From IMG/VR virus record IMGVR_UViG_3300011334_000503: 20,000 bases of DNA. One strand, given 5' to 3'. Shown piece after piece: positions 5,156-19,689 of the stretch. Position numbers and translations under genes: made by a program. The DNA comes from an uncultured virus (IMG/VR IMGVR_UViG_3300011334_000503) (taxonomy: Duplodnaviria > Heunggongvirae > Uroviricota > Caudoviricetes). The notes beneath the pieces were generated by a model. The model saw nothing but the letters and a program-made list of their open reading frames with translations. It was not told where the DNA came from and searched no databases. Position 1 is the first letter of the stretch, and each line of letters begins with the position of its first letter.

Positions 5156-5184
5156 ACTGCTATAAATATGTGAAAATGTAATTG

Positions 5185-5388: not shown

Positions 5389-5390
5389 CG

Positions 5391-5472
5391 TAGTCAGAGT
5401 AGGATTCGAACCTACAACGCACAACCATTCTTCAGGATGAGATGCCGTTTTCCCATTACGTGCTACCTGACT
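5391..5472 (-). ncRNA. tRNA-like element 1 (no canonical anticodon arm)
   Basis: Acceptor AGTCAGG/TCTGACT-A and T arm GTAGG-TTCGAAT-CCTAC. The central region does not form a 5-bp/7-nt anticodon stem-loop. Confidence 0.7.
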
Positions 5473-5529
5473 ATAAGAGTGCAGTGAGATCTAGATTCTC
5501 TGCGGCTACTGCACATTTTATCCGCTTTG

Positions 5530-5595
5530 TAGTCAGGGTGGGATTCGAACCCACAACGGAAACTATCGCAACCGCTTTTCTTAAGCTACCCGACT
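5530..5595 (-). ncRNA. tRNA-like element 2 (66 nt, minimal, anticodon arm degenerate)
   Basis: Acceptor AGTCGGG/CCTGACT-A, D arm GCTT-AAGAA-AAGC and T arm GTGGG-TTCGAAT-CCCAC. Only 19 nt lie between the D and T arms. Confidence 0.7.
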
Positions 5596-5596
5596 A

Positions 5597-5890
5597 TTTA
5601 GGAAAGCAGAAGATGGGTGCGTAGACATCTGCTTTTACGATTGGCGTTACTTCGGTTTCTACACCTCCTCGCTTACATTCCAACTTTTTAATGAAGGTGT
5701 AAGGTTTCCCAATCAACCTAATTTGCAATCCTATTCCCCAGTGGAATTGCTTTACACTGCTGACTAACGATTCAGAGGAGTAGTGTGCTTCGTAATCCTT
5801 TTCGATACTATCTCAAGGCAATTAGAGAGGCATTCCTGAGTTTTCGATCCCGTGGCCTGCGGGCTAGTTTCGTAGACTCACTGTGTTCAG
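5597..5890 (-). ncRNA. Unassigned multi-stem structured RNA(s)
   Basis: No credible ORF. Nested helices TTAGG/CCTAA, GATTGG/CCAATC, TACACCTTC/GGAGGTGTA and AAGCAGA/TCTGCTT, plus GCAATTC/GGATTGC and TGAGT/ACTCA (the last enclosing CTA/TAG and CCCG/CGGG hairpins). Confidence 0.5.
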
Positions 5891-5891
5891 G

Positions 5892-6048
5892 CTGTCAGGG
5901 AAGGATTCGAACCTTCATGCTGTGATTCGGTAGTGGACAAAATAGCCGGCTTTGTGGTCAACCCATATCCCGTCTACCTTTTTCAGATTCAGCGCCCTCG
6001 AGACAAGAGGGTGTGTATGCCGTTGCGTACGCTTTTCACCACCTGACA
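5892..6048 (-). ncRNA. tRNA-like element 3 (157 nt; GTC at the anticodon position, giant variable arm)
   Basis: Acceptor TGTCAGG/CCTGACA-G; D stem GTG/CAC with an enlarged loop; CCCTC-TTGTCTC-GAGGG stem-loop; a variable region of about 75 nt closed by GCTG/CAGC; T arm GAAGG-TTCGAAT-CCTTC. Confidence 0.7.
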
Positions 6049-6053
6049 ATTTG

Positions 6054-6135
6054 TGCCCCATATCGGACTCGAACCGATACACCGTAAGGAACTAGATCCT
6101 AAGTCTAGCGCGTCTACCAATTTCGCCAACGGGGC
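6054..6135 (-). tRNA. tRNA-Leu(TAG)
   Basis: GCCCCGT/ATGGGGC-A acceptor; GGCGAAATTGGTAGACGC D arm; CTAGA-CTTAGGA-TCTAG anticodon arm; T arm ATCGG-TTCGAGT-CCGAT. Confidence 0.95.
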
Positions 6136-6143
6136 ATTCTCTG

Positions 6144-6217
6144 TGGACCTTGTAGGACTTGAACCTACGACCCCCTGATTATGAGTCAGATGCTCTAACC
6201 AACTGAGCTAAAAGTCC
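6144..6217 (-). tRNA. tRNA-CAT, most likely Ile2 (lysidine-modified), alternatively elongator Met
   Basis: GGACTTT/AGGTCC-type acceptor with A73; GCTCAGTTGGTTAGAGC; CTGA-CTCATAA-TCAG; GTAGG-TTCAAGT-CCTAC. G1-C72 is paired and there are no triple G-C pairs in the anticodon stem, so it is not fMet. The overall sequence resembles bacterial tRNA-Ile2. Confidence 0.9.
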
Positions 6218-6235
6218 GTTATCTGTTAGATAGGA

Positions 6236-6249
6236 TGTAAATATACGAC
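6236..6249 (-). promoter_or_regulatory. Putative promoter of the tRNA/ncRNA cluster (GTCGTATATTTACA)
   Basis: The same GTCGTATATTTACAT occurs at 11551-11565 upstream of another gene. It resembles the Bacteroidota -7 TAnnTTTG box and lies about 18 nt upstream of the first tRNA, just after a terminator. Confidence 0.65.
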
Positions 6250-6261
6250 AATAATATCAAT

Positions 6262-6300
6262 AAAAAACCCCTAACTTTTCAGTAGGGGCTTTTCTTTTTT
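6262..6300 (-). terminator. Rho-independent terminator (probably bidirectional)
   Basis: AGCCCCTA-loop-TAGGGGTT followed by a T run on the - strand, with a T run on the + strand too. Directly downstream of the 6316 stop. Confidence 0.8.
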
Positions 6301-6315
6301 ATCTTTACGTTCTTA

Positions 6316-6636
6316 CTATTTGAAGAACTCGGCCAACTTAACTCTTAACTCCTGAACGTCGTCATCGTCTAGTCCTGTCTTTTTAATAAGATTCCTCATG
6401 TGATCCATCATTACGTTGAATACTTCGTCAACTTTACCGCTGCCTTCCATTAGTTCTTCATCTGGACCCAAAGGATCGTTCTCTCCGTCCTGAGGATTAA
6501 GATCAAAATCTTCTGCGCTTTGGTAATCGTAATCGTCATCCTCAAGCATCTTTTCTGGTTGGGTATAGTTACCATAACCACTAGTTTCTTTTAGAAGAGG
6601 ATTATTCTTGAGGTATTTATTGAAATTAAATTCCAT
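6316..6636 (-). CDS. Acidic hypothetical protein, candidate internal head protein
   Basis: Likely start at 6636 (MEFNFNKYLKNNPLLKE), after AAAACT and the upstream stop. Very Asp/Glu-rich; N-terminus resembles that of the neighbouring gene. Confidence 0.7.
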   Translation of the reverse strand: MEFNFNKYLKNNPLLKETSGYGNYTQPEKMLEDDDYDYQSAEDFDLNPQDGENDPLGPDEELMEGSGKVDEVFNVMMDHMRNLIKKTGLDDDDVQELRVKLAEFFK

Positions 6637-6646
6637 AGTTTTTGTT

Positions 6647-7402
6647 TTATCTGCATTTAGACATGCTAGCAGCTGTTCTGTTTCCTTCGTCGTCAACTCT
6701 ATAGCACTTACCGTTGATTAATTGGTAACTAGATTCGTATTCATTTATTTGACTTTCGAAATTTTTTCCTTTAGCAGCTGCTTCTGAATGAGCATCAATA
6801 AACATCTTACACATTTCTAATACGTCTTCTGGTTCGAATCCATCGTCAAGCAAAAACATAATGCCCTTTTCGATCTGATCTCCACCCAAATCAAACATCC
6901 TGTCAAAGTCTCCGCTATCAACAGGACTAGCGGCATCTCTTTGAGCTTGAGCGAAAGAATCGTCAGCGTAGACGTTCTCTGGCTTTTCTAATTCGTTAGT
7001 GATAGCGGGACCACTTTTTGCATCATACTTTCCGTCGTACTGCTCACCGTCTGGTTCGCCTTCGCTCATCTCACCGTTAAGAAGTTCAGGATAATAATGC
7101 GCAATAGACTCTTCGTCCATGTCATAGAATTCGCTTCTAAGATAACCAAGAATGTCTTCCTTTCTACCAGTAACTTCGTAAGTACCAGGATTTTCTGTCT
7201 CTTTTACTTGGATATTAAAATCAGCAAATGATCTTTGCGCGTATGTATCCATTGCAGGATCCCATGACATATCAAGTTCAATAGTCATCATGTCGCTCTC
7301 CTCTTCTCTTAGAGGCATAAGATCAACGTAACCGCCGATGCTTTCGTTAAGCAGTTTGTTTCCGTGGCGTAGATAGCCTTTTAAATCGAAATTATCTTGC
7401 AT
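6647..7402 (-). CDS. Acidic hypothetical protein, candidate internal head protein
   Basis: 251 aa, Asp/Glu-rich, starts MQDNFDLKGYLRHGNKLLNE. Preceded by CATATTTATAA. Confidence 0.75.
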   Translation of the reverse strand: MQDNFDLKGYLRHGNKLLNESIGGYVDLMPLREEESDMMTIELDMSWDPAMDTYAQRSFADFNIQVKETENPGTYEVTGRKEDILGYLRSEFYDMDEESIAHYYPELLNGEMSEGEPDGEQYDGKYDAKSGPAITNELEKPENVYADDSFAQAQRDAASPVDSGDFDRMFDLGGDQIEKGIMFLLDDGFEPEDVLEMCKMFIDAHSEAAAKGKNFESQINEYESSYQLINGKCYRVDDEGNRTAASMSKCR

Positions 7403-7482
7403 TGCTTTATTTTTTGGTTATAAATATGCGTTCGGTAAGAACAAAAATCCCCCAGTTGGGGCCCTATACACGTATATACACA

Positions 7483-7974
7483 CTACCTTATGGTGAGCAG
7501 TTGACCGAGCTCCTCGATCACTTTAACAGCGTCAGCCGATTTGATCTCAAACCCTTCACGACGTGGATTGACCCTGTACCCCATAAGTTCTAGCCTTTCG
7601 TGCACCGCTTGTTCAAGGATCCTAGAGTTCAAACACTTATACTTGTAAACAGGAATCCAAGGAGTAATGACGCCTGTGGCCGAGTTGATCTCTTTAACTC
7701 GTTGGTTAACGCTAGTCGTAGTCATGCCAATCTTGCAGATCCCAGGTATTCCCTTGTTGACGAGAACGTAGACAAATTCAGGCTTATGAACCGAATCAGT
7801 AGGATCCATGATACCTTCTTGATAATAAGTAACATCGTCCCAGCCCTCAAATTCGGGATCTTGACTCGGAGTAAACGTAAACGCTACGGCCTTGCGACAG
7901 CAGTTAGGATCTCCAGATTGGATCTTTACGTACCTATATGTCTCTTCTTGAGTTATCCTTTTCATCGGTTCCAT
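7483..7974 (-). CDS. T5orf172/MUG113-like (GIY-YIG superfamily) protein
   Basis: FVYVLVNKGIPGICKIGMT...QRVKEINSATGV...LEQAVHERL...RVNPRREGF is the T5orf172 signature. Confidence 0.85.
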   Translation of the reverse strand: MEPMKRITQEETYRYVKIQSGDPNCCRKAVAFTFTPSQDPEFEGWDDVTYYQEGIMDPTDSVHKPEFVYVLVNKGIPGICKIGMTTTSVNQRVKEINSATGVITPWIPVYKYKCLNSRILEQAVHERLELMGYRVNPRREGFEIKSADAVKVIEELGQLLTIR

Positions 7975-7980
7975 AATAGA

Positions 7981-8265
7981 TTATTTAGAGAACAAAGTCT
8001 TGATAGCTAACCAAAGCAAAGCAAAAGGAGCAGCAAAAACGGCAGATAGGGCAAGAGCAGCTATGTGGATTACGTAGCCGCAGATAAAGAAGCCAGCGCT
8101 AAAACCAACGACCTTTCCGCCAAGGCTCACATCGAACGGCATGATAAGAAACCCAAGGATAAACGCGGCCAAGAGAATCATGGCCAGACCAGCAAGGATC
8201 CTAAAGAATTTAACGGTCAAAAAACCGATAGCGAGGCAGACCAAGATAAAGATAACGTACGACAT
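7981..8265 (-). CDS. Small membrane protein (multi-TM)
   Basis: Almost entirely hydrophobic. Likely start MSYVIFIL after AAAGTT. Confidence 0.7.
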   Translation of the reverse strand: MSYVIFILVCLAIGFLTVKFFRILAGLAMILLAAFILGFLIMPFDVSLGGKVVGFSAGFFICGYVIHIAALALSAVFAAPFALLWLAIKTLFSK

Positions 8266-8398
8266 AACTTTAATTTTTAGACTCAAAAGACCCACAACAA
8301 TCGGCCTGCTGCATCCGGCTAACCAGGTCAGATCAGGACCCGACTGTTGTGTATAATCTTAAGAGAGAGTTTTAGTAGCCCAAAACAGCTCGGGTGAC

Positions 8399-8548
8399 TT
8401 AGACGGCTTGAGAGTAGGTGAGCGCTTGGTAATACATACCTTTTTCTGTGAAAGGATTAGAATACAGGTTCCATCCTCGTGATAGTCGTTGGTTAACCTG
8501 TTCTGCTAGTTCTTGCGCGTTTGAGGCGCTTAGGATTGCGTACTGCAT
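8399..8548 (-). CDS. DUF1737-like small protein (49 aa, not in the ORF track)
   Basis: Manual translation MQYAILSASNAQELAEQVNQRLSRGWNLYSNPFTEKGMYYQALTYSQAV* matches the Y..L...L...VN..L..GW...P.....YQA pattern. Confidence 0.7.
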   Translation of the reverse strand: MQYAILSASNAQELAEQVNQRLSRGWNLYSNPFTEKGMYYQALTYSQAV

Positions 8549-8551
8549 ATA

Positions 8552-8734
8552 CTATTTGTTTTTGGTGATTGATTCGATTCTTTCGGTCTTGATCCAGGCT
8601 GTTAGGATCCATATAGCGCATGCTAGAGGCCAAGACCAGGCCGAAAAGCCCGACTGAAACGTGAAGACTGCTGCTGTGATAGAGCTAACAAGACCGAGAA
8701 CGAAAAACGTCCTTTCTAGATTGATCATTTTCAT
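8552..8734 (-). CDS. Small two-TM membrane protein
   Basis: 60 aa with two hydrophobic segments. AAAGTT-ATG start and an upstream GTAAATTTAC motif. Confidence 0.65.
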   Translation of the reverse strand: MKMINLERTFFVLGLVSSITAAVFTFQSGFSAWSWPLACAIWILTAWIKTERIESITKNK

Positions 8735-8756
8735 AACTTTCGTATTTTAGGTAAAT

Positions 8757-9020: not shown

Positions 9021-9046
9021 ATTTCTGTATTTACTTTTTTGACAGG

Positions 9047-9289: not shown

Positions 9290-9299
9290 TGTATTTTTT

Positions 9300-9524: not shown

Positions 9525-9689
9525 GTGTAAATTTGTAAATATGTTTTTGATTAGGTGAAATTTTTCTGGGAGTTGGCGACGGACCAAAGCATAGGGCCCC
9601 GGCCCCTGGCCCTTCCTGGCTCCGAAAACTAATGCTTTGGCAGGGAGCTAGCGCACCGCTAGTGGTACGCCAGCACCTTGCCGCCGCTC

Positions 9690-10496
9690 TTAGTTCGCGT
9701 AGGCGTCTGCTAATGTCCAGAGACCTTGGTTGAGGGTCATGTCCTGTATAGGATTGGTGATCGGCCTAGCTGTTCTGTTGTTCATCTGGAATCCTCCTTT
9801 GATCAGATTCTCTTGGACTCGGTTGAAGACGTGCCACAACGTATTGCTGTCATCCTCTCTGCGTCGTGAAGACAGGATCTCGTTGATCTCGTAGTCTTCG
9901 GCTTGGCGATCGGTGTTGAGTCGCATCGCTAATGCCTCGATAGCGAAGGCGGACCGCTGTCCTGCTGTCATCTCTATTCCGTTCCACCTAGAGATCTTGC
10001 CTACTACTGAGCTCATGCCTTCGATCTTCTCAGAGATAAGGTCCTTTACGGATTGGAAGTCCAGCTTTGTGTGGCGCTCTCTGAATCCTCCGAAGTCTTG
10101 GTCCTTGATCATGAGGCCGTTGGAACATACTAACCTAAACATTCCCATCTCGAACTTGATCGGCATTACGCCGTCGTGGGAGTTAACCAAGATCACGGTT
10201 GGCTTGGCTTCTAGCTTACCGTCAGAACCCTTGACAGACAATTCTGGGTGCTGGAACTGTACGATGTGCGTACCGAAGTCCTTTCTGAGGTCGCTCTTTG
10301 TGGCTGACTGCTTAGCATCTGTGAGGACAAAGCCGAGGTCGTTCATGTGGCTGATGACTTCGGTTGTCGGTGTGAACTTGTAGCGGTTTAAATTGATGTG
10401 CGCTGCGGGTCTGGTGGCTGCGATGGCTGGTGCCTTTTCGATTGCTTCTTCGAGGCTGAGTACGCGGCTAGTGTTGAAGGTGCTAATGTTGTTCAT
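9690..10496 (-). CDS. DUF932 domain protein
   Basis: APAI.A......Y.F.PT.EVI..M...GF, H.V.F, ILVNSHDG, GMFRLVCSNGL, RRREDD.NTLWHVFNRVQENLIKGG and LNQGLW.LA are DUF932 hallmarks. Confidence 0.9.
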   Translation of the reverse strand: MNNISTFNTSRVLSLEEAIEKAPAIAATRPAAHINLNRYKFTPTTEVISHMNDLGFVLTDAKQSATKSDLRKDFGTHIVQFQHPELSVKGSDGKLEAKPTVILVNSHDGVMPIKFEMGMFRLVCSNGLMIKDQDFGGFRERHTKLDFQSVKDLISEKIEGMSSVVGKISRWNGIEMTAGQRSAFAIEALAMRLNTDRQAEDYEINEILSSRRREDDSNTLWHVFNRVQENLIKGGFQMNNRTARPITNPIQDMTLNQGLWTLADAYAN

Positions 10497-10583
10497 AACT
10501 TTTATTTTTTGTTCTATGTAAATATAATCGTTTCTGGTGATCTGGTAAAACTTTTCTTAAAGTATTTTAGAAAGTTTTTATTG

Positions 10584-10802
10584 TCAACCAACGGGTTGTG
10601 TCAGGTTGGTTAATACCTGATGGAGGTACTCTACTTCCAGACTTTCTTTACAGTACTGCTCTTCCATCCACTTGGCGTTCTTGTGGGTGGAGTCTTCTCC
10701 AAATAGTCTGATCATCTCCTCGATCCTCTGGAGTCTGGTATCAAGTGCTGTTCTGAGAAGCTCGATCTGACGGTCGTTAAGTTCTAAGTTGTGGTAAGTC
10801 AT
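10584..10802 (-). CDS. Hypothetical protein
   Basis: Likely start MTYHNLEL at 10802; helical, 72 aa. Confidence 0.6.
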   Translation of the reverse strand: MTYHNLELNDRQIELLRTALDTRLQRIEEMIRLFGEDSTHKNAKWMEEQYCKESLEVEYLHQVLTNLTQPVG

Positions 10803-11189
10803 GCTCTTATTGTTTGGTAACAGGGTAAAAGTACCCCTTTCTGGTGACAATATATAGTACTAGAGCAAGTATTTTTAGAAGTTTTTAGTTTGTCTAATCC
10901 TGGAATCCTGGGCTGAGGGTCATCTAACCAGGTCCCCTGGGGCTGAATGGGGTTTAGCCTCCAGACCTGCATTGGCTTCTATTGGAAATCAGCGCGTTAT
11001 GAAACTACAATACCCCTGCGTCTTGGCATGGGGTGCAACTGGGGGGTGAGATATGTTTACTTTCGCGTCTGGCTTTAGAGAGGATCCAGCGGCTCTGACC
11101 TTTATTCTTTAGTATTCGTCTCTTCGTCCCTTGTTATTGCTCCGTCCAGCGGTGCAGGGAATGTCACTCCTACTGTCAATAAATATCTG

Positions 11190-11246
11190 AAAAAAGAAAA
11201 GGAGGCGGGGACTGAAAGAATCTGTTACCAAACCCAGTCCCCGCTT
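11190..11246 (-). terminator. Rho-independent terminator
   Basis: GCGGGGACTG/CAGTCCCCGC 10-bp stem with a long loop, followed by CTCCTTTTCTTTTTT, just after the 11263 stop. Confidence 0.75.
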
Positions 11247-11262
11247 ACCTTAGGGTGAAGGC

Positions 11263-11514
11263 TTAGTTCATTACTGAATCAAGCTTCTTGACGTTAGAGA
11301 TACGACCGCGGGTCATATCGTAGGCCTTGTTCAGGATAACGTCGTTAAAATACTTACCACTTACTACGTCAGAGACGTGTGTAGCTGAATACCCGGTTGC
11401 TTCTGACACGCGAGTGATATCGCCTGTACGGAGTTTACGGTTGATCCTAGCGGCTTTCTGAATGTAGGTCAGCTTAGTGTAAGAGCTTGGCCTGCTTGAG
11501 TTTGATGTTTGCAT
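11263..11514 (-). CDS. Small basic HTH-like DNA-binding protein
   Basis: 'GDITRVSEATGYSATHVSDVVSG' fits a helix-turn-helix. It is a monocistronic unit with its own promoter motif and terminator. Confidence 0.65.
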   Translation of the reverse strand: MQTSNSSRPSSYTKLTYIQKAARINRKLRTGDITRVSEATGYSATHVSDVVSGKYFNDVILNKAYDMTRGRISNVKKLDSVMN

Positions 11515-11550
11515 GTAACCTGTTTTTGTTGTTTGTTATTTAATTAACCT

Positions 11551-11565
11551 ATGTAAATATACGAC
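11551..11565 (-). promoter_or_regulatory. Putative promoter GTCGTATATTTACAT
   Basis: Identical to the motif upstream of the tRNA cluster. Confidence 0.65.
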
Positions 11566-11846
11566 TTATTTGCTTCTGTATTGTTGCTTATGTTTTCGGT
11601 ACGTATCTTTTTTTCACTTTTTTCTTTTATTTTTTTGTTTCGTTGCGATAGCAGGTTGTATTGTACTAAGAACGTTTATTTTTTTGTTTAGGTGGGTTTA
11701 CAGGTTTACTGTTACCCCGTTATTTTATTTTTTTCTTGCGAGTATTCCCCCCCTTAGGGACGTTATAAAAAGGGACCCGCTTTCTTCGTTGCTATACGGT
11801 TTTCTTACCCACTCGGTCATCGTGTCATATACCACCGTTTTCTTTG

Positions 11847-12032
11847 TCAAGGTGTCATAGAGGGGATTGCCGCTTTTGTCACTATCTGTATGTCACCTTG
11901 TCCTATCAGGTAGCCTTGTATAAAGCCATTGATCCAAAACTGTTTGTCGTACTCGTCGCAGTGGTGACACCCCTCCCACGTTTCTTCTGCCAGTTTTCTT
12001 ATCTCTTCTAGCGTGAGTTCTTTCTTTTGCAT
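11847..12032 (-). CDS. Hypothetical protein
   Basis: 61 aa with a CxxC motif, 1 nt downstream of the gcvH stop. Confidence 0.65.
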   Translation of the reverse strand: MQKKELTLEEIRKLAEETWEGCHHCDEYDKQFWINGFIQGYLIGQGDIQIVTKAAIPSMTP

Positions 12033-12033
12033 G

Positions 12034-12417
12034 TTAGTATCCTACTAGGGCTTTGTATTGTTCTGCTGTTAGTAGATCCTTTGTTTCTTCTTTGTTCTCT
12101 ATCTGCACCTTTACCATCCAACCTTGACCGTAAGGATCTGTATTCACTAGTTCTGGACTTGTATCCATTAGGGGATTTGTTTCTGGTATCCTTGCTGATA
12201 TTGGCATGAACAGGTCTGATACTGTCTTTACTGCTTCCACTGTTCCGAAGGTTGTGTCTTTGGTTATCTCCTTGGTTGATGGTTTCTCTGTCTCTACGTA
12301 TATTATGTCTCCCAGTTCGGACTGTGCAAACTCTGTTATTCCTATTGTGGCTTTGTCCTCCTCTATTAGGATCCACTCGTGTTCTTTTGTGTATCTAAGA
12401 GTCTCGGGAAATGTCAT
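12034..12417 (-). CDS. gcvH: Glycine cleavage system H protein (lipoyl carrier)
   Basis: YTKEHEWI, ATIGITEFAQSELGDIIYVE, FGTVEAVKTVSDL (lipoyl-Lys intact) and PELVNTDPYGQGWM. Confidence 0.95.
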   Translation of the reverse strand: MTFPETLRYTKEHEWILIEEDKATIGITEFAQSELGDIIYVETEKPSTKEITKDTTFGTVEAVKTVSDLFMPISARIPETNPLMDTSPELVNTDPYGQGWMVKVQIENKEETKDLLTAEQYKALVGY

Positions 12418-12635
12418 TGGTTATTTGTATTAAAGGTTTCAAGGTAGTATTCTTCTGCCGTTAACGCTCTACCTAAAAATGTAGGTAGGTTTCCGTGTTT
12501 CCATGATTCTATTATCTGCTCCTTGAATACGAGTTTTGCATCTTCTAATATTTGGTTAGGATCACACTCTACTGTACCCATTAGACATTTTCTTAAAGCT
12601 TGATCGTAAAATTCTACTGCTGTTTGGTGTGTCAT
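12414..12635 (-). CDS. Small phage protein, 'QTAVE...AEEYY.ETF' family
   Basis: Paralog of 14363-14581 and 14794-14991. Confidence 0.75.
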   Translation of the reverse strand: MTHQTAVEFYDQALRKCLMGTVECDPNQILEDAKLVFKEQIIESWKHGNLPTFLGRALTAEEYYLETFNTNNQ

Positions 12636-12636
12636 A

Positions 12637-12855
12637 TTATAGTTTTTCTATTTCTTTTTGTACTTGTTGCCAATATTTTACCCTTGCTTCAATTACATCC
12701 ATTGAAACTGATGGTTCTATGTTTGCTATTATCTCATTCACTGCTATCAATGCACATTTCTTTTTATGTTCCCAATTCTCTTTACCGTATACCCAACCGT
12801 CTGTCAATGTAATATATTTATGGACTAACTCCTGTGCTTTTTCTTTTGGTGCCAT
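12637..12855 (-). CDS. Small phage protein, 'PKEKA..LV...YWQ.V..EIEKL' family
   Basis: Paralog of 13572-13805 and 19137-19370. Confidence 0.75.
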   Translation of the reverse strand: MAPKEKAQELVHKYITLTDGWVYGKENWEHKKKCALIAVNEIIANIEPSVSMDVIEARVKYWQQVQKEIEKL

Positions 12856-12857
12856 AG

Positions 12858-13217
12858 TTATTTGTTTTTAACTGATTGAATTAGTTTTTTCAAGCATTCA
12901 AGTTGGGCTTGTTCAATAGATAAATTTCTATCATATTCAATAAACCTATTGTGGGTTCTATTATACACAACGAATCCATATAATTCATTTAATGGTTCTA
13001 TTTGAACAAACCCATCTATGTTATGCTTCTCTCTAAACCACCGGAAGGCTTGTTGGTATAGTGGGGCAGGAATAATATAATCATCTCCACTTGTCATAGT
13101 TGCTAAATGGTATGAAAAACTTTCTCCTTCATAATAACTTAAACATGGTTCATCAAACCCAAGTTCTTTAAGTTCTAACGCTTGTTCGTATGGGATAAAT
13201 TCTGTTTGTTGTGCCAT
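12858..13217 (-). CDS. Conserved phage hypothetical protein ('EFIPYEQALELKELGFDEPC...APLYQQAFRWFREKH')
   Basis: 119 aa; a recurrent motif in Bacteroidota phages. Confidence 0.75.
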   Translation of the reverse strand: MAQQTEFIPYEQALELKELGFDEPCLSYYEGESFSYHLATMTSGDDYIIPAPLYQQAFRWFREKHNIDGFVQIEPLNELYGFVVYNRTHNRFIEYDRNLSIEQAQLECLKKLIQSVKNK

Positions 13218-13240
13218 AGTTTATTTGTTATAGGTTTTAC

Positions 13241-13570
13241 TTACAGTAACGTTACTCCTCCCATTCTCATATAGTCACTCATGCCTAATGTGCCTTCTTC
13301 TACTTTATCGTAAGTCATTTCAAATATCTCTGGCTTACATGGATAGATTTCTCCTTGTACTCCTTTGATTATGTAATCTCCACAGTCTCCTCTCATGATT
13401 CCCTCTAAGGTTTTTATTTCACAATAGTATTCTGATGGATCTCTTACGTCCGTTCCTACGTAAGTTATAATCTGGTTAGAGGTTACTTTGTCACTAAACC
13501 AATCCGGTCTCGGGTCTATTCCGTATTTGAATGCTTCTATTACTACCGGTTTCTTTCTGTATTGTGCCAT
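13241..13570 (-). CDS. Conserved phage protein ('YRKKPVVIEA...TLEG...GDYIIKGVQGEIYPCKPEIF', PGDYG-like)
   Basis: Widely conserved phage family signature. Confidence 0.8.
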   Translation of the reverse strand: MAQYRKKPVVIEAFKYGIDPRPDWFSDKVTSNQIITYVGTDVRDPSEYYCEIKTLEGIMRGDCGDYIIKGVQGEIYPCKPEIFEMTYDKVEEGTLGMSDYMRMGGVTLL

Positions 13571-13571
13571 A

Positions 13572-13805
13572 CTATAGTTTTACTATTTCTTTTTTTACTT
13601 CTTGCCAATAATTTATTATCCATTCACAGTAATCATCATCCGCAAAATGTGTATGGTCTAATTCATTAATAATCTCATCCACTGTTCTTAATCCGCATTG
13701 TATTGCCATTTCTTTAGTCATATATCTTGGCGTATTATACTCTTGTTCGTCGCTAAGATCCATGTATTGATCAACTAATTGCATTGCTTTTTCTTTCGGT
13801 GTCAT
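13572..13805 (-). CDS. Small phage protein, 'TPKEKA' family
   Basis: Paralog of 12637-12855. Confidence 0.75.
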   Translation of the reverse strand: MTPKEKAMQLVDQYMDLSDEQEYNTPRYMTKEMAIQCGLRTVDEIINELDHTHFADDDYCEWIINYWQEVKKEIVKL

Positions 13806-13808
13806 AGC

Positions 13809-14063
13809 TTACTTGTTTATTACTTCAAATAGGTGCCAAACGAACATCATGTCTTGCCATGTTCCGATGTACTTCTTGTTTGTGTCATCGAAAATGTGTC
13901 CTGTGCCTACCACTTCAAACACTCTCTTCTCTGTCTCTGCTTCTGGATCTACTAAAGCCCAAATACACGTATTAAATGAATCTTGCATTTGAACTGTTAG
14001 AATCTCTGCTCCCTTGGGCATCTCGATAACGTTCTCTACTGTAAACTTCCAAATCTGTTTCAT
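13809..14063 (-). CDS. Conserved small phage protein ('IWKF...MPKGAEILTVQ...VGTGH...YIGT...VWHLFE')
   Basis: Recognisable widespread phage family of unknown function. Confidence 0.8.
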   Translation of the reverse strand: MKQIWKFTVENVIEMPKGAEILTVQMQDSFNTCIWALVDPEAETEKRVFEVVGTGHIFDDTNKKYIGTWQDMMFVWHLFEVINK

Positions 14064-14068
14064 ACTAT

Positions 14069-14359
14069 TTATTTTTTATCTATATAAGTTAAAGTCATTG
14101 GCTTCTTGTATTCCATTTCAACTACTCTATAGAAGTATCCATCCACACTATTTGTACTGTTCTTTACGTACTTGTCAAAGAACCTCTTAAACCAAGATCC
14201 TTTAAATATAACAACTTGAAATCTTTCTACGTAATCCATTCCGTCTTCTTCGCTTATTAATCCTTGGCTGATTAGACTACCGATTACAAGCTCTTTCACT
14301 TTGTTTGCGTGTATAGTATCTGTTTCTATACTTAATACTTGATTGTCAATTGCTGCCAT
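14069..14359 (-). CDS. Hypothetical protein
   Basis: 96 aa; starts at the repeated TAAACTATGGCA junction. Confidence 0.7.
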   Translation of the reverse strand: MAAIDNQVLSIETDTIHANKVKELVIGSLISQGLISEEDGMDYVERFQVVIFKGSWFKRFFDKYVKNSTNSVDGYFYRVVEMEYKKPMTLTYIDKK

Positions 14360-14362
14360 AGT

Positions 14363-14581
14363 TTATTTGTTATATGTTTCGTTGTAGTATTCTTCGTAAT
14401 CCTCAATGTCCACTCCGTTATTATTTCCAAATTTTACACAAGCATTTATTATCTGCTCTTTCTCTATTTCTTTGGATAATTCAGTTATATCTATAACCTG
14501 CTGCCAAGTCATTTTTTCTCCTTTTGCTTGAAGTTTTTTCCAACGATTTACCAACCATTCAACTGCTGTTTGTTGTGCCAT
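14363..14581 (-). CDS. Small phage protein, 'QTAVEWL...EEYYNETYNK' family
   Basis: Paralog family member. Confidence 0.75.
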   Translation of the reverse strand: MAQQTAVEWLVNRWKKLQAKGEKMTWQQVIDITELSKEIEKEQIINACVKFGNNNGVDIEDYEEYYNETYNK

Positions 14582-14584
14582 AGT

Positions 14585-14791
14585 TTATTTGTTTATATCT
14601 ATTAAGAGTTTAAAGAGCGCGATTGTTATCATCAATGTAACTACACTTCCCGCAAGTAATAGTCCGTGAGGAGATGCATCCATTCCATCCTCTTCCATAA
14701 TCTGAAAAGCCTTTCTGATTATCCAATTATACAAGTGTTGTACTAGTATGATGCATAAACATAGGGAAATTGTTGCGATTGTAAGTGCCAT
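14585..14791 (-). CDS. Small two-TM membrane protein
   Basis: 68 aa with two hydrophobic stretches. Confidence 0.7.
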   Translation of the reverse strand: MALTIATISLCLCIILVQHLYNWIIRKAFQIMEEDGMDASPHGLLLAGSVVTLMITIALFKLLIDINK

Positions 14792-14793
14792 AG

Positions 14794-14991
14794 TTATTTT
14801 TTATAGGTTTCGTTAAAGTACTCCTCTCCTGTTTTTAATGGGTTGTTGTAAACGTCTTCTTCGACTCCTGTGCGGTATGCTTCTGAGATTTGTGCCTTCT
14901 CCATCTCTTTGGCTTTGGTCATGTCCTCGTAGTACAAGGTACCATAATCGTGGTACCTCTTAATCAACCATTCGACTGCTGTCTGTGTCAT
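14794..14991 (-). CDS. Small phage protein, 'QTAVEWL...EEYFNETYKK' family
   Basis: Paralog family member with an upstream GTACATTTAC motif. Confidence 0.75.
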   Translation of the reverse strand: MTQTAVEWLIKRYHDYGTLYYEDMTKAKEMEKAQISEAYRTGVEEDVYNNPLKTGEEYFNETYKK

Positions 14992-15102
14992 AACTTATTG
15001 TTTAGGTAAATGTACGCTAATCCTTTGGAAAGGAGAAGTATTCCGTTTTGGTGTATATATAGATCTTAAGGGTTCTCGGGATCGTGGTGTGTGGCGCGCT
15101 CG

Positions 15103-15312
15103 TCACTGTCCCTTATCCTCACCGCCGCAGTACTTACACTTGATTGGTCTCCAATCCTGGTTCGGTACGGGTTTTACTTTTTCTAGTTCTATCTGTTCTT
15201 TGAATACTGTATCTAGTATTGTTAATAGTCTTATCTTTGCATTCTCCTCTATTATTGAATATCCGTCTGAATATTCTAGCTCTATGTCTTTGGTCTTAAT
15301 TTTTAGGTTCAT
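15103..15312 (-). CDS. Hypothetical protein
   Basis: 69 aa with a C-terminal CxxC. Confidence 0.6.
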   Translation of the reverse strand: MNLKIKTKDIELEYSDGYSIIEENAKIRLLTILDTVFKEQIELEKVKPVPNQDWRPIKCKYCGGEDKGQ

Positions 15313-15316
15313 ATTA

Positions 15317-15571
15317 TTATTCTTGATAGTATTTATCTAGCATTTTGTCCCATTCTTTATCGTATAATTCCTTCCACTCATCACTTAATTTAGGATAGAT
15401 ATTCTCTTGAAAGAAATTATTCATCGAGTACCCAAACTTAAGATCATTTAAATAGGTTTCGCAATACTGTCCTTCTATACCCTGTTTGCAAGATAAAGGC
15501 GAGCAACAACCTTCTTCTCCACATCCATTACATATCTTACAATATGGACTGTATTCTTCTGTTTGTGCCAT
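15317..15571 (-). CDS. Cys-rich hypothetical protein (possible metal binding)
   Basis: YCKICNGCGEEGCCSPLSC...YC motif. Confidence 0.7.
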   Translation of the reverse strand: MAQTEEYSPYCKICNGCGEEGCCSPLSCKQGIEGQYCETYLNDLKFGYSMNNFFQENIYPKLSDEWKELYDKEWDKMLDKYYQE

Positions 15572-15581
15572 AGTTTATTTT

Positions 15582-15815
15582 TTAATACCACTCTATTGTC
15601 AATAGATATTTGGTAGAATTGATGCAGGGTCCGATCTCTATTACATTGGAGAATTTTTTAGTCTTTCCTTTGAACACGAAGAATCCTGGAATTTTTAGAT
15701 AGAAGAACCAGTAGTTATCGCTCATCCTTTCTGGATTGATGACTCTATAAGATCTAAACATGTTGTACTTATCTATTGCGTCTAGCATTCTCTCTTTTAC
15801 TAGTCTTACTTTCAT
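15582..15815 (-). CDS. Hypothetical protein
   Basis: 77 aa, in the operon-like array. Confidence 0.6.
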   Translation of the reverse strand: MKVRLVKERMLDAIDKYNMFRSYRVINPERMSDNYWFFYLKIPGFFVFKGKTKKFSNVIEIGPCINSTKYLLTIEWY

Positions 15816-15819
15816 ATGC

Positions 15820-15951
15820 TTAAGGTTTGGTTGTTTTAGCTTTAGTCACTAATTCTAATATCTCCTCTAACTTTTGATCTATGGAGTTAGCTCTTTCCTC
15901 TATTCGATCTAAAGAATCGTTAATCTGGTCTATTATTTCTTGTTCTGTCAT
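15820..15951 (-). CDS. Small coiled-coil protein (43 aa, not in the ORF track)
   Basis: MTEQEIIDQINDSLDRIEERANSIDQKLEEILELVTKAKTTKP*, with an ATGA overlap with the upstream stop. Confidence 0.65.
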   Translation of the reverse strand: MTEQEIIDQINDSLDRIEERANSIDQKLEEILELVTKAKTTKP

Positions 15952-16406
15952 AGTTTATTATTTAAGCGTTTGATATAGTCGTTAGCGAACTTGATCTTCC
16001 ATTCTCCAGTGTGACCGTCTTCGTCTAAGGCATACATGATGGCGTCCTTAATGCGTTGCTCTTCCTTTTCTTTGTTTTTCCAATTATTAACTTTGTCTAC
16101 TTGTTCTCTTATTTGGGTTGATGTTTCTATCTGTATTCGCTGTATCAAATTTATAAGTTCATCTTTTGTGAATACAAATACCTCACCTGTTAATCTATGG
16201 AAATCTTGTGCGTGGGGGTTTTTGTCATCAAATTTAACAGTGGAATGCTTAACAATGTCTGGTTTTGCTATAAATAGTTCATCAGCGATTCTATACATTA
16301 ACTGCCTATTCATCTGTTCTACTAATCCATGAATATGTGAACGTTCTAGCATTTCTCTAGGTACTATATATTCTGCTCTAAGTCTATTTTTTAATGGTAG
16401 TTCCAT
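15948..16406 (-). CDS. Hypothetical protein
   Basis: 152 aa, tightly packed. Confidence 0.65.
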   Translation of the reverse strand: MELPLKNRLRAEYIVPREMLERSHIHGLVEQMNRQLMYRIADELFIAKPDIVKHSTVKFDDKNPHAQDFHRLTGEVFVFTKDELINLIQRIQIETSTQIREQVDKVNNWKNKEKEEQRIKDAIMYALDEDGHTGEWKIKFANDYIKRLNNKL

Positions 16407-16409
16407 AGA

Positions 16410-16643
16410 TTAGTTTAAAAGTAAGATTAATTTAATTTGAGTATTACAATAATTGATTGTTCGTTCTAGTTCTTGAATAGACATAATGTGCTCATCGGGA
16501 GTTTGTTCATACTTTATGCAAACCATCTTCCTCATGTCTAGATAAGGTTCTAACATTCGAAGTAACTGTTCATTACTTATTGAGTTATTAGCAATCTTTC
16601 TAATCCTTTGTTCTTGTTCGAGTCCATCGTAATTTAAATTCAT
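16410..16643 (-). CDS. Hypothetical protein
   Basis: 77 aa with an upstream GTACATTTAAC motif. Confidence 0.65.
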   Translation of the reverse strand: MNLNYDGLEQEQRIRKIANNSISNEQLLRMLEPYLDMRKMVCIKYEQTPDEHIMSIQELERTINYCNTQIKLILLLN

Positions 16644-16680
16644 AACCTTTATTTAGTTAAATGTACTAAATCTTTTTGAT

Positions 16681-17064
16681 CTAATTAAACTTATCTTTGA
16701 AGCGATAGTTCGATTCTAAGTATTCCCACAAAGACTGAAACGAGTAGCAGATGGGATTGCCATTCTCGTCTCTTGCGCCGTATTCTATTTCTCCAGTAGG
16801 TTCTTTTCTAGTGAAGGTACCGTCTGCCTCTCGCCTAAGAGTAGTTTTACTCCAGTCCTTTTCTCCGTAGTCGTTTTCCCAACAGAACCAAGAGTACCAA
16901 TCATAACCCTCTTTTGTATAGATTTCGGTCAGTAATGTTTGTGTCATTACAGAATACTCTTCTACGAAGTCTATAAGATCGATCTTGATGTCGTAAGCTT
17001 TTTGGATCTTTTGCTCCATCTTTCTTTGAGTCATAATCACCTTCAGAAAATTTTCGTACGTCAT
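16681..17064 (-). CDS. Conserved phage hypothetical protein ('EGYDWYSWFCWENDYG...A.DENGNPICYS..SLWEYL')
   Basis: The likely start is MTYENFLK at 17064; the track start at 17166 lies inside a tRNA-like element. Confidence 0.75.
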   Translation of the reverse strand: MTYENFLKVIMTQRKMEQKIQKAYDIKIDLIDFVEEYSVMTQTLLTEIYTKEGYDWYSWFCWENDYGEKDWSKTTLRREADGTFTRKEPTGEIEYGARDENGNPICYSFQSLWEYLESNYRFKDKFN

Positions 17065-17078
17065 AATTTTTATTTTTG

Positions 17079-17180
17079 TAGTCAGGACAGGATTCGAACC
17101 TGTAAGTGGTACACCCAAGTAATTCAGTTCCACCATCTGAATGTATTTAGAGTGTGCGTCTACCATTCCGCCACCTGACC
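17079..17180 (-). ncRNA. tRNA-like element 4 (anticodon arm replaced by a long hairpin)
   Basis: Acceptor GGTCAGG/CCTGACT-A; Leu-type D arm GGCGGAATGGTAGACGC; extended hairpin ACACTC..ATTCAG/CTGAAT..GGGTGT; T arm ACAGG-TTCGAAT-CCTGT. Confidence 0.75.
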
Positions 17181-17188
17181 ATCCTTCG

Positions 17189-17449
17189 TTAATAAAGTTC
17201 TACATTCAATTCCTTACTCCATTTCTTATATGCCTCAATTGGATCATTAACGTATGCATTTATTTCAGATAGTGCCCTTTCATAATTTGTAAATGCAATT
17301 GATTTACAACCAATTCTTACAACACAACCGCTATCTAGAAATTCAATGTTGATTTGATGTCTTCGCCTAATTTCATCTGCAGATGGTTTATATCTATTTG
17401 GTCCATCATCTCTAACTGGTTCTTGGCATAATGTTTCTTCTGGTCTCAT
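17189..17449 (-). CDS. Hypothetical protein
   Basis: 86 aa ('INIEFLDSGCVVRIGCKSIAF'). Confidence 0.7.
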   Translation of the reverse strand: MRPEETLCQEPVRDDGPNRYKPSADEIRRRHQINIEFLDSGCVVRIGCKSIAFTNYERALSEINAYVNDPIEAYKKWSKELNVELY

Positions 17450-17840
17450 GGTTTATTTGTTTTTTATTTATTATACGCTTCGTTATAGTTTATATTATAG
17501 TATTCTTCTGCAAATAGTTTAACTATTGAGTCATCATACGTTGCCTTTTCCATTCCAGACATAAACGCTACTCTTGATGCTTTTTCTAGATGATCCTTCT
17601 CAATCTGCAAAAACCTACTAAAATCTTCATGAGCATGGAATTTGATTGAACCATCCTCTTGTCTGCGTTCAACAAAAATAAAGTTTAGTAATTCCATTAC
17701 TCCTGTCATTGCTTTTTTTCTCGCTTCTACAACTGGAGGTTTCCAAGAAATTGTCGTTGTTCCCATTTCTGTTGGCTTAAAAGATGTTGGCTCTTGATTT
17801 GATGTTTCTTGATTCATGGTTTATTTGTTTTTTATTTATT
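17446..17840. repeat. 27-bp exact direct repeat (17446-17472 and 17814-17840) flanking one gene
   Basis: TCATGGTTTATTTGTTTTTTATTTATT read identically at both positions. Confidence 0.9.
17464..17817 (-). CDS. Hypothetical protein with a C-terminal 'AEEYY...YNK' tail
   Basis: 117 aa; the C-terminus resembles the QTAVE family. Confidence 0.7.
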   Translation of the reverse strand: MNQETSNQEPTSFKPTEMGTTTISWKPPVVEARKKAMTGVMELLNFIFVERRQEDGSIKFHAHEDFSRFLQIEKDHLEKASRVAFMSGMEKATYDDSIVKLFAEEYYNINYNEAYNK

Positions 17841-17999
17841 TTTCATTCTTTCCATTTGTTCGTGGTACTCTTCATACCAAAAGTCCTTGTCATCTTCCCA
17901 CTGACCGGTAAGTTGCGGATACATTTCCCAAAACATCCCGCTTTTTAAGAGTTTAGTGTAAGAATCCTTTACCTTTGCTTCTATAGTTTCTTTTGTCAT
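17832..17999 (-). CDS. Small hypothetical protein (55 aa, not in the ORF track)
   Basis: MTKETIEAKVKDSYTKLLKSGMFWEMYPQLTGQWEDDKDFWYEEYHEQMERMKNK* fills the gap exactly. Confidence 0.7.
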   Translation of the reverse strand: MTKETIEAKVKDSYTKLLKSGMFWEMYPQLTGQWEDDKDFWYEEYHEQMERMKNK

Positions 18000-18008
18000 A
18001 ACCTGTTT

Positions 18009-18635
18009 TTAGAATTCGTTTACTCCATCCAGTCTTTCTAACTCAGCCTGCAAATCTTTTATAGAGGATCCCTTATTAAAACTGGTATTAGGATCCAAGT
18101 CTTTGATCTGTTGTGCTAAGTGTTCTTTACGACCCTGTTCGTAGAACCTATCTTCGATAGCTGTGACTAGATCCCACATCTGAGTGTTTCCACTGATGGA
18201 TATTCTAAGATCATAGTAGTGCCACTTTGTCTTATAGTCAAATATCATGTATCCTCCAGTAAGTCTAGTTAGGAGATTATGTAGCACTCTGTTCCTTACC
18301 CTTACGATAGAGTTATCAGATCCGAATAAGTGTAAGAACCTTAGGAACCAACGAGGACACCACTTAGGTTTTGCCTTGTAGTCCATGAATACCACTAAGG
18401 GTTCCATCGCTTTGAATATTTCACCGTCTTCTTTCCAAGGAACGGAGCCAAGATATTTGTATTTTTCGTAGAACCCATCAGGAAAGAAAACAGCTCTAAG
18501 ATCGTCTAAAGTAATGTCTCTAGTGTGGATCATGCCTTTCTTTCTGCCTTTCCAAAACAATAGGCTTTTTCCAAAGTTAATTGCTTTCTCTTTAAACGAT
18601 CTATTGTCTTTGAATGCAAACTTGCTCTTCTTCAT
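18009..18635 (-). CDS. Hypothetical protein
   Basis: 208 aa, basic and aromatic; starts 17 nt after tRNA-like element 5. Confidence 0.75.
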   Translation of the reverse strand: MKKSKFAFKDNRSFKEKAINFGKSLLFWKGRKKGMIHTRDITLDDLRAVFFPDGFYEKYKYLGSVPWKEDGEIFKAMEPLVVFMDYKAKPKWCPRWFLRFLHLFGSDNSIVRVRNRVLHNLLTRLTGGYMIFDYKTKWHYYDLRISISGNTQMWDLVTAIEDRFYEQGRKEHLAQQIKDLDPNTSFNKGSSIKDLQAELERLDGVNEF

Positions 18636-18652
18636 AACTCTTTATTTTTTTG

Positions 18653-18780
18653 TAGTCAAGATAGGATTCGAACCTATATTACATTTCTGTAATCCTTCTC
18701 ATTCACGTGATACTGGTGCGTCTACCAATGTCTCAGGCCCCAGTTTTTATCCCAGCGCCAAACAATTCCGCCACCTGACT
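18653..18780 (-). ncRNA. tRNA-like element 5 (hairpin inserted in the D loop, degenerate anticodon arm)
   Basis: Acceptor AGTCAGG/CTTGACT-A; GGCGGAAT-[36-nt hairpin insert]-TTGGTAGACGC; variable hairpin ATTACA-GAAA-TGTAAT; T arm ATAGG-TTCGAAT-CCTAT. A promoter-like GTAAATTTAT lies 10 nt upstream. Confidence 0.75.
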
Positions 18781-18840
18781 ATTTATTTGTATAAATTTAC
18801 TAATACTTTTAGACAGATTAAACTATAAGTTTATGGTATC

Positions 18841-19678: not shown

Positions 19679-19689
19679 AACTTTTATTT

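Follow-up and report, generated by a model that had tools for sequence, protein, structure and literature searches.

A family of phage RNA genes combining a frozen leucine-type tRNA chassis with conserved and reassorted inserts

Since the 1970s, phage tRNA clusters have been known to encode stable tRNA-like RNAs, which have been regarded as single curiosities. The closest described examples are RNA1 of phage T5 and species 1 RNA of phage T4, in which a tRNA-like acceptor stem and T-arm are combined with an enlarged interior and no anticodon function. In this report, we focused on five elements of the same make-up, named E1 to E5, on the minus strand of a 20,000-nt stretch of DNA from an uncultured Caudoviricetes virus (IMGVR_UViG_3300011334_000503), hereafter the window. 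These elements belong to a well-supported RNA gene family, which extends a known and unexplained kind of phage RNA and differs from the two described cases in its copy number, in a chassis that is frozen in sequence and in a modular design with two insertion sites.

RNA1 of T5 (misc_RNA T5s03, NC_005859 30501-30644), whose annotation reads 'tRNA-like stable RNA with unknown functions', is one of the genes of a phage tRNA cluster. Its 144 nt comprise an acceptor stem, a Leu-type D-arm (GGAATTGGTAGAC) and a T-arm around an expanded interior, but it is a single copy in a coliphage and has another acceptor and T-loop sequence. In species 1 RNA of T4 (rnaC, NC_000866 70908-71046), a tRNA-like fold with a GGTTCGAATCC T-arm takes up the 3' 92 nt, and its phage is of the same type as the carriers of the present family, which are T4-type. 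The differences here are a 47-nt 5' extension outside the tRNA-like part, another acceptor stem and one copy per genome. Species 1 RNA matches no Rfam family, and two papers (PMC3014915, PMC9697503) state its role as unknown. R1, a covariance model built with chassis pairs only from an alignment (A1) of 66 members of the present family, scores both RNAs comparably to the tRNA-Leu of the same phages—RNA1 is the best match in its region of T5 at 27.8 bits (tRNA-Leu, 23.9 bits), while rnaC reaches 23.3 bits in T4 (tRNA-Leu, 31.8 bits)—which is a likeness in kind and does not by itself establish descent. T5 RNA1 is not known to belong to a family in which the chassis is frozen or the inserts are exchanged.

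Other systems share part of this design. Class II tRNA-Leu (RF00005) has the same acceptor/T minihelix, 3-bp D-stem with a GG loop, U48, A73 and tRNA flanks, but also the 5-bp anticodon stem and 7-nt loop that the family lacks. In the engineered 'tRNA scaffold' of Ponchon and Dardel, a foreign RNA reportedly replaces the anticodon arm and is then processed and stabilised by the cell; this is a man-made system, and the resemblance is one of design and not of descent. In murid gammaherpesvirus 68, tRNA-like RNAs are linked to pre-miRNA hairpins and host tRNA-processing enzymes make small non-coding RNAs from them, but this is a eukaryotic virus, and its hairpins lie downstream of the tRNA-like unit and not inside it. 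At the DNA level, Arbiol et al. (2010; PMC2839356) describe PeSL cassettes, brief conserved units between genes of the hyperplastic regions of T4-type phages, at which recombination shuffles neighbouring genes. PeSLs are promoter plus terminator units and not RNA genes, whereas the window elements have neither and carry conserved inserts. We also considered Tenacibaculum phage pT24 (L162, LC168164), a cultured Bacteroidota jumbo phage, and rejected it as a relative. Its two near-identical tRNA-Undet genes (2790-2868 and 3157-3235) have a normal class I tRNA body whose anticodon loop is filled by a hairpin, so that the chassis is a different one; the remodelling is analogous, and pT24 could serve as a laboratory model.

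Anatomy of the five elements

All five elements were re-found at exactly the positions listed in Table 1, by a script that looks for a T-arm with an acceptor stem and by R1 run with filters off, and R1 reports nothing else in the window above 15 bits apart from the three tRNAs. E1 to E3 lie within a tRNA operon, between tRNA-Leu(UAG) and tRNA-Leu(UAA) and co-oriented with them, and E4 and E5 lie between small open reading frames (ORFs). A 7-bp acceptor stem is present in each element, as is a 5-bp T-stem whose 7-nt loop reads TTCGAAT in all five, and the first acceptor pair is A-T in three elements, T-A in one and G-T in one. The 3'-arm pattern with which we collected the family has five matches in the window, where 200 shuffles give an expectation of 0.00, and a de novo repeat search independently groups the same five 3' arms as one family (D1).

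The first-pass annotation of the window had described five minus-strand elements of 66 to 157 nt, T-stems and a first acceptor pair that vary while staying paired, and three nearby real tRNAs with other acceptor stems, all of which is borne out. Some of its finer points have to be amended. It had denied a canonical anticodon arm to four of the elements, when in fact none of the five is called with one: ARAGORN, from which undetermined, pseudo or no calls had been expected, gives no call for any of them and reports only Leu-UAA, Leu-UAG and Met in the window. A canonical 5-bp anticodon stem with a 7-nt loop is likewise absent: the arm of E2 is shortened in the Rfam alignment, and that of the E4 consensus has a 6-bp stem. 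The A73 that had been noted is present in four elements, E3 having G73, and the Leu-type D-arm is found in E4 and E5 but not in E1, E2 or E3. As for Rfam, a strong match to which had been named as grounds for dropping the idea, the generic tRNA model (RF00005, threshold 29 bits) accepts E2 at 40.7 bits, E1 falls just under at 27.5 bits, and E3, E4 and E5 are not reported at threshold. Several relatives elsewhere also pass, at 34-45 bits. Such matches are trivial, and Rfam 15 contains no specific family; nor did we find a description of a family with a tRNA-Leu chassis in the literature. No tmRNA was detected in the window by ARAGORN or Rfam.

Comparison with other contigs helps to define what fills the middle of each element. 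Seven relatives of E1 (L006, L059, L095, L015, L037, L062 and L096) have a GTAATG...GGTTG core in common with it, and the helix that closes the fused arm covaries. Only 12 of the 15 expected anticodon-arm positions of E2 are aligned by Rfam; a 19-nt core is identical in E2 and its orthologues on L021 and L035, both of which have a longer D-loop containing GG. E3 folds with a z-score of -2.24, and its orthologue on L021 is 91% identical across the insert, where two hairpins covary, L116 being a more distant relative. For E4, whose chassis combines acceptor strands GGTCAGG and CCTGACT with a Leu-type D-arm, a T-arm of ACAGG/CCTGT and A73, the orthologues on L065 and L157 yield a consensus cloverleaf. 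A 6-bp stem occupies the place of the anticodon stem in this consensus; above it come an internal loop and a further 6-bp hairpin whose 9-nt loop is invariant, and three pairs show compensatory changes among the three orthologues. The module boundaries of E5 were taken from a comparison of members with a D-loop insert, in which row L177 is the same phage's own copy, and an anchored pattern search for an orthologue of E5 matched only the phage's own record.

Table 1. Positions of the tRNA-like elements and associated features in the window, with R1 scores and stem sequences where given
Feature	Position	Strand	R1 (bits)	Acceptor strands (5', 3')	T-stem	Description
tRNA-Leu(UAA)	5184..5269	-		GCCCCGG (acceptor)		ARAGORN; Rfam 58.9 bits; last gene of the tRNA operon
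E1	5391..5472	-	47.0	AGTCAGG, TCTGACT	GTAGG/CCTAC	82-nt divergent member; D and anticodon arms fused into one arm, closed by GCACG/TGTGC
E2	5530..5595	-	40.4	AGTCGGG, CCTGACT	GTGGG/CCCAC	66-nt truncated member; short hairpin in place of the anticodon arm; D-loop without GG
E3	5892..6048	-	40.4	TGTCAGG, CCTGACA	GAAGG/CCTTC	157-nt expanded member; T1-A72, G73; about 60 nt inserted ahead of the GGTAGAC D-loop motif
tRNA-Leu(UAG)	6053..6135	-				ARAGORN; Rfam 56.8 bits; 4 nt upstream of E3
tRNA-Met(CAU)	6143..6217	-				ARAGORN; Rfam 72.6 bits; first gene of the tRNA operon
Terminator-like hairpin and T-run	6262..6289	-				Read from the sequence; just upstream of the tRNA operon, which it divides from the preceding gene
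E4 trailer	17065..17078	-				14 nt, A-rich, up to the ATG of the next ORF (16681-17064)
E4	17079..17180	-	80.5	GGTCAGG, CCTGACT	ACAGG/CCTGT	102-nt standard member; 5' chassis 17155-17180, insert 17104-17154, 3' chassis 17079-17103
E5 trailer	18636..18652	-				17 nt, A-rich, up to the ATG of ORF 18009-18635
E5	18653..18780	-	64.3	AGTCAGG, CTTGACT	ATAGG/CCTAT	128-nt standard member with two inserts; 5' arm 18766-18780, 3' arm 18653-18677
E5, D-loop insert	18728-18765	-				38 nt
E5, constant segment	18718-18727	-				TGGTAGACGC
E5, second insert	18678-18717	-				

A phage family with a constant chassis and changing inserts

A key finding in this study is that the five elements are members of a large family in which the chassis is frozen not only in its pairing but also in its sequence, which goes beyond what had been proposed from the window. 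IMG/VR was scanned with a single 3'-arm pattern in which the T-loop and the greater part of the 3' acceptor strand are set and the D-arm, the 5' strand, U48, A73 and the T-stem are left free, and the family counts given below (out of 133, 155, 167, 174 or 176) cover the matches listed. The pattern was found at no fewer than 136 loci on at least 120 distinct IMG/VR contigs. Alignment A1 consists of a constant 5' part (acceptor strand, TG and Leu-type D-arm) and a constant 3' part (T, T-arm, acceptor strand and discriminator), with nothing alignable between them. Across 133 distinct members, 98.9% of the chassis pair cells are paired and 13 of the 15 pairs show double-sided changes; taken singly, the three chassis helices have 99.4%, 96.6% and 99.7% paired cells, and none of 500 shuffles attains the observed values. 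This upholds the earlier view that selection acts on the acceptor/T minihelix and the elbow, as opposed to decay, and the conservation of orthologues described below adds to it.

More striking still is the constancy of the letters themselves. The acceptor stem is AGTCAGG/CCTGACT in 104 of the 133 members (the 5' strand is AGTCAGG in 122 of 167 matches), the T-stem is ACAGG/CCTGT in 98 and the T-loop TTCGAAT in 120, A73 is present in 118 and a T precedes the T-stem (U48) in 120, and 86 of the 104 standard members have the D-loop GG at the standard offset. Members found by R1 alone, in the arrays of L160 and L161, have the same chassis, and some members retain an enlarged CTTAAG loop. The higher R1 scores of the two tRNA-Leu genes in the window (43.5 and 38.6 bits) than of tRNA-Met (17.7 bits) point to a leucine-tRNA origin of the chassis. 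The real tRNA-Leu genes of carrier phages have GCC-type acceptor stems. One further IMG/VR contig, L111, carries a canonical tRNA-Leu(UAA) with acceptor ACTCAGG/CCTGAGT and A73, a single pair swap away from the family chassis, and this gene may resemble the progenitor.

The carriers are T4-type phages, the T4 capsid family Gp23 being encoded in four of five carrier records including both near-complete ones, and their hosts are probably freshwater Bacteroidota. A stricter 21-base pattern, run on one genome for each of 185,579 species, returned 20 loci on 18 contigs, all 18 from metagenome bins and none from isolates. The labels of nine of these contigs, which suggest the host group, are Bacteroidota (Chitinophagia, Sediminibacterium, Flavobacterium, Saprospirales/Saprospiraceae and Bacteroidia), and the sequencing runs that contain the window sequence are riverine, aquatic, estuarine and viral metagenomes. 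Copy number can be high. In record G004, about 11 members stand among about 24 real tRNAs on one strand of a stretch of about 7 kb that is nearly free of ORFs (R1 and ARAGORN); G006 has a similar array, members are interleaved with tRNAs in L160 and L161, and two near-complete genomes have 2 and 4-5 copies. A blastn search of E4 against 50,697 records of cultured phages gave only short arm matches to ordinary tRNAs, none covering 80% or more of the query, and a search with the region had the same outcome. Of 174 pattern matches, ARAGORN accepts 32 as tRNAs, and the anticodons that it assigns are scattered and in many cases unusual. The array of L161 also contains a near-match to the Rfam freshwater-1 RNA (RF02979) at 14749-14811 on the plus strand, at 70.1 bits against a threshold of 72.

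The inserts are the other half of the design, and they behave as separately conserved modules that reassort, a feature that the first-pass annotation had not noted. They occupy two sites, one in the D-loop and one in the anticodon/variable region, and 176 of them fall into 153 similarity clusters. Where an insert type is common to two or three contigs, the whole element is 85-97% identical and shows compensatory changes, while the DNA outside cannot be aligned; at the protein level, no flank homology between orthologous elements was found in 44 of 49 comparisons, and only E4 and its orthologue on L157 have a common upstream small ORF (47% identity over 45 aa). Inserts conserved in this way, with compensatory changes amid unalignable flanks, are neither decaying pseudogenes nor filler. 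Eighteen loci whose D-loop carries an insert were picked up by a gapped pattern, and they show how modules combine. The 38-nt D-loop insert of E5 is letter-identical on another contig, L170, where it stands between the same constant segments, but neither the second insert nor the flanks on L170 are related to those of E5. A D-insert type shared by L167, L178 and L182, with a variant in L169, is combined with 3-4 different second inserts, each of these members having its own, and the insert type of L020 has a D-insert beside it in L179 but none in L020. Reassortment of this kind means that the chassis has two cargo sites whose contents assort independently. Recombination within the constant segments would be the simplest route, and would parallel PeSL-mediated shuffling. 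Words enriched across the inserts, such as TGGTA and GTAGACG, were set aside as shared motifs, since they largely stem from D-loop segments displaced by D-loop inserts, and Rfam at permissive thresholds has no family for the inserts of the tRNA operon and two related arrays.

Processing signals, proposed function and competing explanations

The chassis is what RNase P, the 3'-processing enzymes, the CCA-adding enzyme and EF-Tu recognise in a tRNA, and bacterial RNase P prefers U at -1. Family members have T at -1 in 136 of 174 cases and A at -2 in 126, and ACAA (57 of 167) and ACTA (35 of 167) are the most frequent of the sequences that start at the discriminator. Among 92 real tRNAs of the same loci, 57 have T at -1, 89 have C74, only 17 encode CCA, and ACAA is again the commonest sequence. 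Since the elements have the same flanking signals as real tRNAs, they would be matured like their neighbours, in line with the role in RNase P and RNase Z processing that had been among the early suggestions. In five related records, several of them fragmentary, we found RNase P RNA in none and a CCA-adding enzyme in one, so that maturation would fall to host enzymes. In the same records, the class I synthetase family and Ro/TROVE are each absent from all five, and an Rnl1 ligase of the T4 type is present in two.

On balance, we think it probable that the elements are non-decoding, tRNA-Leu-derived modular RNAs, in which the chassis would be a handle for processing and stability and the inserts would be functional modules acting in trans. 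The genes would be transcribed within the phage tRNA operon (E1 to E3) or within runs of small ORFs (E4 and E5). The chassis would be recognised like a pre-tRNA, with RNase P cutting at U(-1) and the 3' trailer being taken off after position 73, CCA would be added by host enzymes, and the excised RNA would accumulate as a stable small RNA, much like T4 species 1 RNA and T5 RNA1, its insert performing work specific to its type. Between ORFs, the same cuts would split a polycistronic message and leave the next gene with a short A-rich leader, while at the DNA level identical chassis segments would serve as joints at which recombination reassorts inserts and flanks. A bolder proposal, which we offer only tentatively, is that these phages possess a natural RNA display platform: the frozen top half of tRNA-Leu would be a universal handle with two sites, on which more than 150 conserved and reshuffled modules form an arsenal of trans-acting effectors. 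The handle would be read by host RNase P, 3'-processing and CCA-adding enzymes, and perhaps by leucyl-tRNA synthetase (LeuRS) and EF-Tu, and the modules would be binders or inhibitors of host proteins, defence nucleases included.

Several observations weigh against a modular RNA with a processing handle. The conservation of the T-loop and of the 3' acceptor strand is partly a matter of construction, as both are fixed in the collecting pattern, and the independent evidence comes from the other positions. Processing alone explains why the stems stay paired but not why their sequence is fixed; the frozen stems suggest either that a partner recognises their letters or that recombination homogenises them. 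Minimum free energy z-scores are unremarkable for E1 (-0.88), E4 (-1.13) and E5 (-1.24), and E2, which is missing the D-loop GG, may be impaired. We found neither a target nor a partner for any insert, whether by antisense pairing in the window or as dedicated enzymes in the five records; the longest complement of an insert to minus-strand RNA of the window is 9-10 nt, a length equalled or exceeded in 96-199 of 200 shuffles. Contigs bearing the chassis are present in one metatranscriptome run (X20), but contigs show neither transcription nor RNA ends nor levels, and such libraries may contain DNA.

Competing explanations take up different parts of this evidence. The conserved joints and the positions between genes could mean that the chassis is only a message-cutting signal and a shared block of homology, with inserts devoid of function. 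The placement of many members fits this account: in 44 of 155 cases the stop codon of an upstream ORF is 2-13 nt ahead of the element, and in 31 of 155 an ORF with an ATG start follows 12-22 nt after it, E4 and E5 being so placed. Orthologue flanks are unrelated in 44 of 49 comparisons and modules reassort, and shuffling by PeSLs is documented (PMC2839356). Yet filler would not be expected to stay 85-97% conserved with compensatory changes where the flanks cannot be aligned, the elements contain no promoter or terminator, and the many members inside ORF-free tRNA arrays have no message to punctuate, which makes this explanation unlikely. The same conservation of orthologues in unrelated contexts, with compensatory changes in chassis and inserts alike, and the near-complete pairing of the chassis in 133 members tell against pseudo-tRNAs decaying after duplication of a tRNA-Leu gene, an idea that ARAGORN's failure to call any of the five elements and the loss in E2 of a D-loop GG that its orthologues have do little to make credible.

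Next in order of likelihood after punctuation, and distinctly doubtful, comes the idea that the chassis is kept because host LeuRS charges it whatever the insert, for example for delivery by EF-Tu to ribosomes or to an aminoacyl-transferase, or for titration of LeuRS. According to a review (PMC9976931), the E. coli enzyme depends on A73, A15-U48, G18G19, A20a and the D/T tertiary pairs, and E. coli tRNA-Leu variants without anticodon and variable arms stay active with it. The frequencies of A73, of the T that would pair with A15 and of the D-loop GG in the family, together with the kept T-loop, are what such charging would call for. Of this identity set, A73, A15-U48, G18G19 and the D/T elbow (PMC9976931) are present in E4, E5 and most of the family, for which leucine charging is possible as far as the sequence allows a judgement, but not in E3 (G73) or E2 (no GG). 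Against the idea, every chassis position is frozen, including those of no relevance to LeuRS, so that A73 is not specifically informative; G73 of E3 is described as a LeuRS antideterminant in the same review; E1 and E2 lack a Leu D-arm; and no phage LeuRS was found, the class I synthetase family being absent from the five records. Moreover, the identity rules are those of E. coli and may not hold for a Bacteroidota LeuRS, and a charged RNA bearing an insert has no evident use.

A role as decoys against tRNA-directed host defence, in which abundant tRNA shapes without a cleavable anticodon loop titrate anticodon nucleases or modifiers of the acceptor end and inserts diversify in an arms race, is in our view improbable. 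The carriers do have near-complete tRNA sets, about 24 in G004, and the inserts are hyperdiverse. Two of the five records encode an Rnl1-type ligase, and Rnl1 is a tRNA-repair enzyme in T4. A single Leu chassis, however, would mimic one tRNA type only, the inserts are unlike anticodon loops, and each insert type is conserved across diverged phages instead of evolving fast. Scaffolds resembling Y RNAs and tethering a Ro-type protein, another early suggestion, are very improbable. Bacterial and phage Y RNAs are said, in work by Chen and colleagues in 2014, to contain a tRNA-like domain, and Bacteroides thetaiotaomicron, the control genome of the search, has a TROVE gene. The suggestion nevertheless fares badly: no YrlA or Y RNA match was found at E values up to 10 over positions 5000-6400, E4 and E5 being searched at gathering thresholds only, TROVE is absent from all five carrier records, and these RNAs end in an acceptor stem and not in a Ro-binding helix. 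The least credible of all the readings considered is that of decaying pseudo-tRNAs.

Genomic setting and significance

The window, a piece of a large phage genome, has many small co-oriented ORFs together with genes for a SegE-type GIY-YIG endonuclease, a T5orf172 protein and a DUF932 protein. Record G001 comes from the same phage, being 100% identical over window positions 9555-20000, and gives no comparative information. The hairpin that precedes the tRNA operon has a 9-nt loop, which is beyond the loop limit of the terminator scan and explains why it is unlisted there. E4 starts 8 nt past a stop codon, and similarity to its trailer extends to many family members. Within or flanking E4 and E5, promoter- or terminator-like sites do not exceed shuffle expectation, the scan being confined to promoters of the sigma-70 type.

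Other features of the region were noted in passing. Between E3 and E2 in the tRNA operon, 296 nt (5596-5891, minus strand) contain no convincing ORF and fold no better than shuffles (z = +0.96), and the 55 nt adjoining E2 (5597-5651) are about 90% identical in L021 and L058. The SegE-type gene (713-1192, plus strand) and the T5orf172 gene (7483-7974, minus strand) lie about 4 kb and 1.3 kb from this operon; in T4, the homing endonuclease SegB is found inside the tRNA cluster. An intergenic unit of about 100 nt at 10799-10916 (minus strand) has at least three copies in the phage at 82-85% identity (in G001, via L163 8905-9021 and 14414-14498). In it, a short GC hairpin comes after an AT-rich, promoter-like stretch. 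The unit is 86% identical to L170 19-116, about 30 nt upstream of a family member on that contig, and may be a PeSL-like promoter/stem-loop cassette. Next to it, a GC-richer stretch of about 330 nt (10920-11250, minus strand) has no ORF of 50 aa or more on the minus strand, follows a terminator-like hairpin and T-run near 11215-11250, and may hold another non-coding RNA. At least six small minus-strand ORFs between 12844 and 17472 have a near-identical start region, an A/T-rich leader and ATG GCA (repeats D2, D8, D9 and D11), which points to gene starts that are paralogous or repeatedly recombined within the small-ORF array.

A few genes may concern DNA modification. The 391-aa ORF at 2200-3375 (minus strand) has no Pfam match, and its nearest ESM Atlas clusters (score 0.96-0.97) contain the HMUDK_hel domain, that of 5-hydroxymethyluracil DNA kinase, in 11-36% of their members. 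The adjacent ORF (3383-4183, minus strand) has a HhH-GPD glycosylase-type domain, and a glycine-cleavage H protein is encoded at 12034-12417 (minus strand). It is possible that 2200-4183 and 12034-12417 are genes for hypermodification of thymidine in DNA.

What was known from T4 and T5 as one RNA per genome here forms a large family, of which one genome can hold as many as about 11 copies, and follows a clear design rule. This turns an orphan observation into a testable system: the chassis predicts the processing enzymes and a possible charging enzyme, and the modules provide many independent handles. The pattern and R1 also ease annotation of such genes, which today are overlooked, annotated as tRNA-Undet or assigned wrongly to a tRNA type. 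Should the inserts prove to be effectors, they would represent a new class of phage RNAs with regulatory or counter-defence roles and a natural counterpart of an RNA-engineering tool. A display platform of this kind, if it exists, would at last give a functional context to species 1 RNA of T4 and RNA1 of T5, which have been orphans for 45 years.

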